DNA from: Escherichia coli
GTDB taxonomy: Bacteria > Pseudomonadota > Gammaproteobacteria > Enterobacterales > Enterobacteriaceae
Direction: 5' to 3' (one strand)
DNA length: 64,000 nucleotides
Assembly (NCBI RefSeq): GCF_022846255.1
Contig: NZ_AP025682.1
In this document: one piece after another, positions 12,219 to 12,756 of the stretch
Layout of the letters: every line of letters begins with the position of its first letter
Position numbering within the stretch: position 1 is the stretch's first letter
Translations under genes and position numbers: made by a program
The notes under the pieces: generated by a model
What the model saw: only the letters and a program-made list of their open reading frames with translations
The model's database searches: none
What the model was told of the DNA's origin: nothing

Positions 12219-12598
12219 AATGAATCCTTTTTCGATTTATGAGAATAAATACTCATTTAAAGGTGAAAACATTTTGCCTGCAAATGATTATCAGGAAATA
12301 TAACATTATCGAAGTATTCAAATTAACAACCATTAAATAACATTAAACATTTTTAACGTAAACATTAAGAATATTCATCTTGTTATCTGTCTGTATTTTA
12401 ACCAGAATTAAATCAGTATTAGATGCCGTATGAATATCTCGAAATGTTGCGGTGCATCACATACAAATCATCACCGCAGGACCATAGTATTTACATAAGG
12501 TTTGTCCCCCGGAGGTAGTCATCACAGCAATCGAGTAAATTAGCTTCACCACGGTATATTGTTTCCGTAGAATACCCATAATTATAAGAGAGGTTGTT

Positions 12599-12658
12599 AT
12601 GATTGAACGTGAACTGGGGAACTGGAAAGACTTTATCGAAGTTATGCTTCGTAAGTAA
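12599..12658 (+). CDS. ypfM: small protein YpfM (19 aa, MIERELGNWKDFIEVMLRK)
   Basis: Short ORF with GAGAGG Shine-Dalgarno about 7 nt upstream, in the AT-rich yffB-acrD intergenic region; below the ORF-track length cutoff. Confidence 0.6.
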   Translation: MIERELGNWKDFIEVMLRK

Positions 12659-12722
12659 TTCCTGAGACAAAGTACAAACAGCAAGAACCCGCTGAGCAGG
12701 TTCTTAATCGGAAAGTTGAAAA

Positions 12723-12752
12723 GGGCGACACATTGGCATGTCGCCTTTTTTA
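12723..12752. terminator. bidirectional intrinsic terminator (ypfM / acrD)
   Basis: ggcgacacattggcatgtcgcc hairpin flanked by T-run on plus strand and adjacent to acrD stop. Confidence 0.6.
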
Positions 12753-12756
12753 TTGC

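Follow-up and report, generated by a model that had tools for sequence, protein, structure and literature searches.

The interval at positions 12219 to 12756 of the stretch of Escherichia coli DNA analyzed here (64,000 nucleotides in all, hereafter the window) is the intergenic region between yffB and acrD in the E. coli core chromosome. We interpret it as a two-part locus in which an AT-rich divergent promoter region, serving yffB to the left and ypfM to the right, is followed by a short monocistronic ypfM mRNA that would be initiated by sigma-70 RNA polymerase and ended by an intrinsic terminator, and we assign this model as a whole a probability of roughly 0.87. The only feature annotated by RefSeq between the two flanking genes is ypfM, which is divergent from yffB and convergent with acrD, the arrangement expected of YpfM by position. 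The locus differs in nothing of substance from ypfM of E. coli K-12 (b4606), which has the same 19-aa sequence, the same position between acrD and yffB, and the same leader, Shine-Dalgarno sequence, and terminator. The features of the locus are collected in Table 1.

Table 1. Features of the yffB-acrD intergenic region and its borders (window coordinates; TSS, transcription start site)
Feature	Position	Strand	Details
yffB (ArsC-family reductase)	11862-12218	-	First gene of yffB-dapE-ypfN
Internal dapE TSS, inside yffB	12128	-	MG1655 2589359(+), 8 reads (Kim 2012)
AT-rich divergent control region, yffB (leftward) and ypfM (rightward)	12219-12598	.	31.8% GC, 380 nt
Candidate Fur-box-like 7-1-7 sequence	12279-12293	+	TGCAAATGATTATCA; overlaps the inferred yffB TSS
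Extended -10, predicted yffB(-dapE-ypfN) promoter	12297-12305	-	TGTTATATT; from conservation and a Salmonella 5' end
ypfM distal promoter P2	12437-12470	+	Weak -35 and -10 elements; mapped TSS 12470
ypfM proximal promoter P1	12545-12580	+	-35 TTCACC 12545-12550, 17-nt spacer, -10 TAGAAT 12568-12573
Shine-Dalgarno sequence	12588-12593	+	GAGAGG; spacing of 5 nt to the ypfM ATG
ypfM coding sequence	12599-12658	+	19 codons plus stop; translation MIERELGNWKDFIEVMLRK; RefSeq WP_001386977.1 / b4606
Subthreshold match to Rfam RF01409, STnc250 (Hfq-binding RNA)	12638-12757	+	3' end of the ypfM mRNA
ypfM 3' UTR	12659-12756	+	98 nt; hairpin 12683-12705, then intrinsic terminator
Intrinsic terminator	12719-12750	+	Stem 12719-12730/12739-12750, then TTTTTTATT; U-run 12746-12751
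acrD	12757-15870	-	Convergent with ypfM; stop codon 12757-12759

The original prediction singled out this tract as the most AT-rich stretch of the window, and so it is. Positions 12219 to 12598 contain 31.8% GC against 53.1% across the 64-kb window, and the lowest-GC stretch falls within them at all sizes tried between 200 and 500 nt; the lowest value, 24%, belongs to 12217-12416 (runner-up, 27.5% at 27405-27604). Expressed as AT content, these values are 68% over 380 bp and 76% over 200 bp, above the ~65% AT over >200 bp that we took to characterize an H-NS-bound region. The spacer also has the lowest GC content among the 23 intergenic regions of at least 40 nt in the window, but the next lowest, maeB-eutS, has 33.2% and typical intergenic regions have 38 to 47%, so that it represents the low extreme of the normal range and not a class of outlier. 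Low GC of this kind would be the usual make-up of enterobacterial promoter and spacer DNA, and would also permit the binding of H-NS that is seen in vitro.

Low GC relative to the flanking genes is likewise the sole support for the idea, raised in the original prediction, that the tract was acquired horizontally long ago and retains a foreign composition, and we consider this idea scarcely credible. Our comparison of ~70 Enterobacterales loci shows both the order of the genes and the presence of an AT-rich spacer between them (median length, 389 nt; 37% GC) to be ancestral, which leads us to reject acquisition as the origin of the tract. The acrD-ypfM-yffB order with an AT-rich spacer of ~390 nt recurs in Citrobacter, Enterobacter, Klebsiella, Kosakonia, Leclercia, and others, and the linkage of ypfM to yffB extends to Yersinia and Dickeya; the AT-rich composition would have been retained since before the split of the Enterobacterales genera. 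Within the species, 5425 of 5426 complete E. coli genomes carry one copy of the spacer at 97.6 to 100% identity, the same divergence as that of the yffB coding sequence. A phage similarity search with the spacer returned no match. A repeat search showed neither repeats at the borders nor relics of mobile elements, recovering nothing beyond the two 3' UTR hairpins and short repeats attributable to chance. The search of a plasmid collection yielded only 6 matching records, which seem to be chromosomal sequences deposited as plasmids (three measure 1.4 to 4.9 Mb, and two are small and non-mobilizable). We thus found none of the marks of an acquired island, be it presence/absence polymorphism, absence from relatives, or similarity to mobile elements.

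The two-part model instead attributes the tract to promoters. Rightward, sigma-70 RNA polymerase would start ypfM at P1 and at P2, giving a monocistronic mRNA of ~173 nt from the former and ~283 nt from the latter. Both starts are listed for MG1655 (Kim 2012, Table S1), that of P1 at 2588907(-), window position 12580, with a 19-nt leader and that of P2 at 2589017(-), window position 12470, with a 129-nt 5' UTR, although the calls are based on few reads (4 and 2, respectively) in a data set that includes many weak internal starts. In an alignment of 19 genera, the two blocks with the highest conservation are those at which these TSSs lie. Our promoter scan picked out the P1 hexamers, and the same promoter was independently predicted by Shimada 2014, where the ypfM<>yffB spacer is also reported to carry an RpoD-holoenzyme genomic-SELEX site. 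A match to P1 is present in 52 of the 72 spacers examined, in most of them fixed 54 nt before the ypfM ATG, while the P2 block lies ~160 nt before the ATG in 50/72. The cross-genus consensus of P2 is TTCAAA-16-CATAAA (62 unique sequences), of which the E. coli copy is degenerate; two of the 7 SNPs that separate the window strain from MG1655 in the spacer are inside this block (12451 and 12455). Conservation of the P2 block, AATATTGC...TCACA...CATAGT (12443-12488), exceeds the needs of a plain promoter. Compared by eye with the consensus sequences for CRP, FNR, PurR, MetR, Lrp, and sigma-54 it gave one half-site match at best, and we therefore assign no regulator to it.

Leftward, the extended -10 TGTTATATT would start the yffB-dapE-ypfN transcript at ~12289-12290, with an additional dapE promoter that would be located within yffB. 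The element is present in a single copy in the 64-kb window, and its reverse-complement motif recurs in 37 of the 72 spacers at ≤1 mismatch, mostly exactly, at a distance to the yffB ATG that is fixed within genera (66, 79, or 88 nt). In Salmonella-type loci the hexamer of the extended -10 ends 105 nt before the yffB ATG, which is 8 nt upstream of the published yffB 5' end at -97, where the published Salmonella yffB::gfp fusion starts, and it is because of this fit that we assign the element to yffB. The TSS table of Kim 2012 lists no yffB TSS upstream of the gene, and the E. coli start on the minus strand, with a probable 5' UTR of ~71 to 72 nt, is hence an extrapolation based on Salmonella and the conservation pattern. 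Shimada 2014 predicted another yffB promoter, TTCATA-16-TTTAAT at 12434->12407; judging from conservation and the Salmonella 5' end, the operon most likely starts from TGTTATATT and not from these earlier hexamers. With this predicted yffB promoter and two mapped ypfM starts in the tract, its original description as a regulatory region proved apt.

Overlapping the putative yffB start is the Fur-box-like sequence TGCAAATGATTATCA, the sole match at ≤2 mismatches in 64 kb, versus 0.15 expected, and one that is conserved within Escherichia only. In Salmonella, yffB is up 2.6-fold in a delta-fur background, and the site predicted there is at a different position. We regard the E. coli sequence as a candidate through which Fur may control yffB.

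The tract was also proposed to be bound by H-NS. This agrees with in vitro evidence, since Shimada 2014 reports an H-NS genomic-SELEX site in the ypfM<>yffB spacer that overlaps the RpoD-holoenzyme site; the H-NS high-affinity motif TCGWTWAATT, on the other hand, is absent from 12219-12598 at ≤1 mismatch, and its counts across the window are at chance level. The spacer is one of the 63 "type-A" spacers of that study (Table 1 of Shimada 2014), which it resembles in having divergent promoters in AT-rich DNA, but the yffB promoter predicted there (12434->12407) differs from the conserved extended -10 (12305->12297). Occupancy of the spacer by H-NS in vivo is plausible from these data. A stronger view would make the tract above all a silencing platform, on which filaments of H-NS (or StpA) repress both promoters and for which AT-richness has been selected. 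We hold this to be a real possibility but not the probable one. The overlap of the two SELEX sites and an AT content of up to 76% over 200 bp are in keeping with it, as is the fact that the central part of the spacer has kept its composition but not its sequence across genera. The low expression of yffB also fits, given that Kim 2012 lists no upstream TSS for it and that the signal of YffB::GFP did not suffice for flow cytometry. However, few small proteins are detected by mass spectrometry as often as YpfM, and STnc250 is abundant, indicating that ypfM at least is not silenced, and both the missing high-affinity motif and a GC content that is merely at the low end of the window's intergenic range weigh against a dedicated platform.

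Mutation is generally biased from GC to AT, and this bias acting on a long spacer in which only short promoter blocks are constrained might have produced an AT-richness that has no function of its own. We consider this unlikely, albeit deserving of some weight. No alignment between genera is possible over the central ~130 to 200 bp, the short promoter blocks show almost no variation, and other long intergenic regions of the window also go down to 33 to 40% GC, all of which speaks for such an origin. Yet the length of the spacer is strikingly constant within clades, at 385 to 391 nt in many Citrobacter, Enterobacter, Leclercia, and Lelliottia loci, which argues for some constraint on spacing, and the spacer is bound by both H-NS and RNA polymerase in vitro. 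We note that the most AT-rich core (~12306-12436) belongs to the part that is unalignable between genera and that no specific function can be assigned to it for this reason.

The original prediction further saw room for an unannotated small RNA. The tract offers 380 nt of noncoding space, conservation at the level of Escherichia is ~85 to 100%, and transcription from P2 begins well within it, but an independent small RNA inside 12219-12598 on either strand appears very unlikely to us, and the suggestion finds no support in the AT-rich part. Our scan recovered no terminator-like sites there on either strand, and Rfam searches at permissive thresholds (11500-13500 and 12200-12800) gave no match in the tract beyond noise: those to mir-310, SNORD94, CsrC, and CDKN2B-AS were set aside as noise, leaving STnc250 as the only credible one. 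No RNA feature is annotated in the spacer in 5426 E. coli genomes, positions 12233-12436 are without conservation in the cross-genus alignment, and no conserved structure points to a separate RNA. The transcript from P2 runs into ypfM and so represents a long leader rather than a gene of its own. Of the small ORFs of the spacer (27, 33, 26, 31, and 22 aa), four have lost their start or gained stops in E. albertii or a divergent Escherichia locus; the 22-aa ORF (12430-12498) stays open, but it was rejected because it has no Shine-Dalgarno sequence, begins ahead of the P2 TSS, and overlaps the conserved promoter block. The only sRNA-like object in the interval is accordingly the ypfM transcript itself, corresponding to STnc250.

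The second part of the locus is the ypfM message. A short ORF with a good GAGAGG Shine-Dalgarno sequence had been recognized from the outset and is confirmed here, with coordinates one base earlier than the first reading suggested. The leader, AAGAGAGG(N5)ATG, is nearly invariant across genera, and its strong Shine-Dalgarno sequence would drive translation of the 19-residue YpfM. The 19-codon ORF is retained in 52 of 54 unique orthologs, with 7, 4, and 15 variable sites at the first, second, and third codon positions, respectively, a pattern by which we judge the 19 codons to be under purifying selection. The peptide of the window is identical to RefSeq WP_001386977.1, "protein YpfM." The equivalog profile NF033843 (small_YpfM) of NCBIfam has a 33-bit cutoff, and a natural 20-aa ortholog from Yersinia scores 32.1 bits on it (E value, 7e-8) over profile positions 1 to 19. 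In E. coli the intact peptide has been detected by top-down mass spectrometry with 100% coverage and an fMet, and it has been detected by data-independent acquisition (DIA) and PRM too. The checks proposed at the outset, for a translation signal on ypfM and for discrete transcripts, are thus answered positively by the literature, the former by peptide detection and the latter by the mapped ypfM TSSs together with Northern blots of the Salmonella ypfM mRNA. YpfM is predicted to be an amphipathic-helix peptide that lacks a hydrophobic segment, and we infer that it most likely acts by docking the conserved hydrophobic face of this helix onto a larger protein.

Downstream of the ORF, the ypfM mRNA would end at an intrinsic terminator, a strong hairpin common to the convergent acrD. 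The original prediction called this terminator bidirectional. On the plus strand the stem is followed by 6 U and then AUU and passes the terminator scan; read in the acrD direction (minus strand), its stem is followed by no more than CUUUUC and does not pass, and the scan instead flagged a second minus-strand hairpin (12706->12682) with a T-rich tail. Bidirectional termination is therefore plausible but asymmetric. The terminator stem GGCGAC/GTCGCC is conserved, whereas the upstream hairpins vary between genera.

The match to RF01409 scored 35.0 bits (E value, 4e-5) at the E. coli locus, below the gathering score of 42, and spans the full-length model with a 37-nt insert; elsewhere the model scored 115 to 125 bits at Salmonella-type loci, 82 in Citrobacter, and 43.1 in E. 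albertii. The position of the match is orthologous, at the 3' end of ypfM and before acrD, and the E. coli sequence shares with Salmonella STnc250 the same ORF, the conserved terminator stem, and a hairpin in the last codons of the ORF. It differs in the middle of the 3' UTR, which is longer (37 versus 13 nt) and contains its own hairpin at 12683-12705. By these sequence comparisons, STnc250 has its E. coli ortholog in the 3' part of the ypfM mRNA. Association with Hfq has been demonstrated for the Salmonella RNA: the STnc250/ypfM mRNA measured ~220 nt on Northern blots, was enriched 4-fold in Hfq coIP, and was reclassified as a small mRNA (Sittka et al.). STnc250 is also abundant in RNA-seq of S. 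Typhi. An analogous case is STnc570/yneM (mgtS), which likewise was found as an orphan promoter-terminator pair or conserved intergenic transcript, was recovered by Hfq coIP, and later turned out to be the mRNA of a tiny protein. MgtS is a membrane protein with a known role, whereas YpfM has no hydrophobic segment and is predicted to form an amphipathic helix.

Such a transcript could in principle be a dual-function RNA, encoding YpfM while its Hfq-bound 3' UTR, or a processed 3' fragment thereof, pairs with other mRNAs. The cDNAs enriched by Hfq coIP in Salmonella run from the last part of the ORF through the 3' UTR and terminator; the 3' UTR of 98 nt is longer than the ypfM ORF; and it always carries a hairpin and a U-rich terminator, the architecture of Hfq-dependent sRNAs. 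We nevertheless consider a dual function distinctly improbable, given that the Hfq enrichment was only 4-fold and the RNA was reclassified as a small mRNA by Sittka et al., that conservation of the 3' UTR between genera is poor ahead of the terminator, with no obvious conserved seed, that there is no known target, and that the searched portion of the supplementary tables of Adams 2021 makes no mention of ypfM.

The gene ypfM, its peptide, the TSSs, the binding of RNA polymerase and H-NS in SELEX, and the Hfq-associated transcript have all been published previously, and the discovery value of our analysis is accordingly small. Its by-products for annotation are the probable promoter of the yffB operon and the over-conserved distal block of ypfM, and its clarifying outcome is that the lowest-GC stretch of the window is an ancestral promoter region, neither foreign DNA nor a hidden gene. 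YpfM ranks among the best-detected small proteins of E. coli. We think it rather doubtful, although worth stating, that the 3' part of the ypfM RNA (12638-12757) might be a base-pairing regulator or that the P2 block (12443-12488) might be the site of a regulator that ties ypfM expression to a particular signal; if either were true, it would give functional work on this 19-aa protein, conserved across the Enterobacterales, its first starting point.

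The 380 nt separating the yffB and ypfM start codons have a GC content of 31.8%, against 53.1% for the window, and the lowest-GC stretch of the window lies inside them at all window sizes tried (200-500 nt; minimum 24% at 12217-12416), which bears out the original prediction that the window is most AT-rich here. This spacer has the lowest GC of 23 intergenic regions of ≥40 nt, but with maeB-eutS close behind at 33.2% it sits at the bottom end of an ordinary range. The maeB-eutS spacer, upstream of the eut operon, reaches its own minimum of 27.5% at 27405-27604. The best-supported account of the yffB-ypfM spacer is that it is a divergent sigma-70 control region, with the AT-rich composition typical of that class. 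It binds sigma-70 holoenzyme and, in parallel SELEX, also H-NS (Shimada et al. 2014), so the predicted H-NS-bound regulatory region holds as regulatory, with H-NS binding shown in vitro.

The window is chromosomal E. coli DNA, read in the reverse direction relative to MG1655, and an 801-nt query around the tract matched 5425 of 5426 complete E. coli genomes, several of them at 100% identity. ypfM (b4606) is the sole RefSeq annotation between yffB and acrD. The acrD of the window is an intact 1037-codon ORF; in the comparison sequence NZ_CP031215.1, which shows no difference from the window across 12100-12900, both acrD and narQ (beyond acrD) are annotated as frameshifted pseudogenes. That sequence, otherwise a close match, differs in the eutG-eutH intergenic region (window ~35120-35290), where it has a 516-nt insert-like region of 62% GC (35122-35637 of its extracted locus) and the window copy has GC-rich, REP-like palindromes (GGGGAGAGGGTTAGGGTGAGGGG ...).

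Features of the yffB-acrD region and the maeB-eutS spacer, in window positions
Feature	Position	Strand	Description
dapE	10731-11858	-	
yffB	11862-12218	-	
Block (d), yffB ribosome-binding region	adjoins 12219		
yffB-ypfM spacer	12219-12598		AT-rich tract
Fur-like 7-1-7 box (candidate)	12279-12293	+	TGCAAATGATTATCA
Block (c), assigned yffB promoter	12297-12305	-	TGTTATATT, extended -10 (TGnTATAAT-like)
yffB promoter predicted by Shimada et al. 2014	12434->12407	-	TTCATA-16-TTTAAT
Block (b), distal ypfM promoter P2	12443-12488	+	T.TTtCaaAATaTTGCtgT..gTCACAt.AAatt.a........gg..CATAgT, fixed ~160 nt before ATG
Block (a), proximal ypfM promoter P1			CTTCAC(A/C)-17-TAGAAT then CATAATAATAAGAGAGG(N5)ATG, fixed 54 nt before ATG
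ypfM	12599-12658	+	ORF translation; RefSeq
Hairpin, ypfM 3' UTR	12683-12705		
Second hairpin	12706->12682	acrD strand	T-rich tail
ypfM terminator	12719-12730/12739-12750		12-bp stem, then TTTTTTATT
acrD	12757-15870	-	
maeB-eutS spacer	27348-27639		292 nt, 33% GC, second most AT-rich intergenic region

The short ORF is real (translated as MIERELGNWKDFIEVMLRK) and has the predicted Shine-Dalgarno GAGAGG, 5 nt 5' of its ATG. The translation check suggested for it has already been made in the literature, with a positive result: YpfM is among the small proteins detected most often by mass spectrometry, including top-down detection with 100% coverage and a formylated initiator methionine, and detection by DIA and PRM. 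Variable sites in the 19 codons fall mostly at third positions (7/4/15 by codon position), length is conserved in 52 of 54 unique sequences, and the hydrophobic moment of 0.55 at 100 degrees, a value reached by 3% of shuffles, is that of an amphipathic helix.

A 19-genus alignment together with anchored motif counts defined four conserved blocks in the spacer, the AT-rich background elsewhere being unalignable. Kim et al. (2012) reported two ypfM starts in MG1655, which we placed on the window by their printed 51-nt sequences. The P1 block ends 7 nt 5' of the start at 12580 (19-nt leader, 4 reads), and Shimada et al. (2014) predicted the ypfM promoter as TTCACC-17-TAGAAT. The start at 12470 (129-nt leader, 2 reads) is the "a" following "AAatt." in the P2 consensus. 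The -35/-10 assignments of P2 are weak (TTCAAA-16-CATAAA), and across 62 unique sequences the "spacer" bases AATATTGC, TCACA, and CATAGT (+13 to +18) exceed these hexamers in invariance, which is beyond the needs of a plain promoter. The block gave no convincing match by eye to the CRP, FNR, PurR, MetR, Lrp, or sigma-54 consensus, and its sequence conservation suggests that it may be the site of some regulator.

We assign block (c) as the yffB promoter because its distance to the yffB ATG is constant within a genus and differs between genera (66, 79, and 88 nt to the motif start in the Enterobacter group, Escherichia, and Citrobacter, respectively) and fits the published Salmonella yffB fusion, which begins at -97: in two Salmonella-type metagenomic contigs the end of the hexamer is 105 nt from the ATG, 8 nt upstream of that 5' end. 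By extension, the E. coli start would be near 12289-12290 on the minus strand. The promoter predicted by Shimada et al. (2014) is conserved within Escherichia only and is, in our view, less likely to serve yffB. Upstream of yffB, Kim et al. (2012) give no start; their dapE start (MG1655 2589359, window 12128, minus strand) falls within the yffB coding sequence, 90 nt from its beginning, giving dapE its own internal promoter in those data. Its 8 reads outnumber those of either ypfM start.

In Salmonella, the sRNA SdsR represses yffB (the fusion starting at -97), mutation of fur is reported to raise yffB 2.6-fold, and MarA gives a ChIP peak within the ypfM-yffB spacer. The Fur-like box TGCAAATGATTATCA overlaps the inferred yffB start, and the 64-kb window yields just this one match (0.15 expected); since it is Escherichia-specific and the predicted Salmonella site lies at another position, it is only a candidate Fur box.

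Downstream, the 98-nt ypfM 3' UTR comprises a hairpin and a strong terminator. Read on the acrD strand, the terminator stem has only CUUUUC after it, and the second hairpin may back up termination, so the predicted bidirectional terminator is plausible but asymmetric. The terminator stem is conserved between genera, and the upstream hairpin sequences differ; the complete P1 transcript has a somewhat better fold than shuffled sequences (z = -2.8). The Salmonella ypfM transcript was found as STnc250 (Rfam RF01409), a growth-phase-dependent band of ~220 nt recognized as the ypfM small mRNA and 4-fold enriched in Hfq co-immunoprecipitation (Sittka et al. 2008); in S. Typhi RNA-seq it exceeded all other RNAs of the Hfq set in abundance. 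The Rfam model aligns with E. coli end to end at 35 bits; it falls short of the gathering score (42) owing to a middle section of 37 nt rather than the 13 nt of Salmonella; E. albertii scores just above (43 bits), and the two Salmonella-type contigs score 125 and 115 bits. By position and conserved ends the E. coli sequence is thus an STnc250 ortholog, formally outside the family by curated score. The Hfq-bound 3' UTR could possibly have a second, riboregulatory function, the Salmonella co-immunoprecipitation being the only result that points to it.

A YffB scan with one genome per species yielded 80 Enterobacterales loci; with MG1655 added, YpfM is present in 74 of 81, mostly in the order acrD-ypfM-yffB. 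The gene extends to Yersinia, to some Erwinia, and to Dickeya. In Dickeya it adjoins yffB with no acrD detected beside it, so its conserved partner appears to be yffB rather than acrD. In Dickeya undicola (1335-2281 of the extracted locus), ypfM is divergent from yffB, acrD was not detected within the locus, and the upstream DNA instead gives Rfam hits for a cspA thermoregulator and a fluoride riboswitch. The spacer (median, 389 nt and 37% GC; flanks, 50-58% GC) recurs across these loci, which marks it as ancestral. Among E. coli genomes its conservation equals that of the yffB coding sequence, it matches no phage sequences, and its plasmid-collection matches are apparently chromosomal DNA filed as plasmids; we reject the idea of an old acquired fragment. 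Nor is there any sign of a separate small-protein gene or of the small RNA for which room had been suggested: 12219-12598 contains no terminator-like site, credible Rfam match, meaningful repeat, or conserved small ORF. The one ORF that remains open in Escherichia, at 12430-12498, was discarded (it lacks a Shine-Dalgarno, begins 5' of the P2 start, and shares sequence with the promoter block). The AT-richness may have been selected, either for H-NS binding or for spacing, or may be the outcome of mutation bias in unconstrained spacer DNA; that the spacer keeps a constant length within clades speaks for some constraint. Overall, the original observation is confirmed and its interpretation partly right, at a locus already known.

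In the divergent control region that we favor, P1 would produce a ypfM mRNA of ~173 nt and P2 one of ~283 nt, with the strong Shine-Dalgarno supporting efficient translation of the 19-residue amphipathic peptide. On the other side, the extended -10 promoter would drive yffB-dapE-ypfN, supplemented for dapE by the internal promoter, and H-NS, whose binding the AT-rich DNA allows, may dampen yffB. The database promoter assignment of the yffB operon may need revision.
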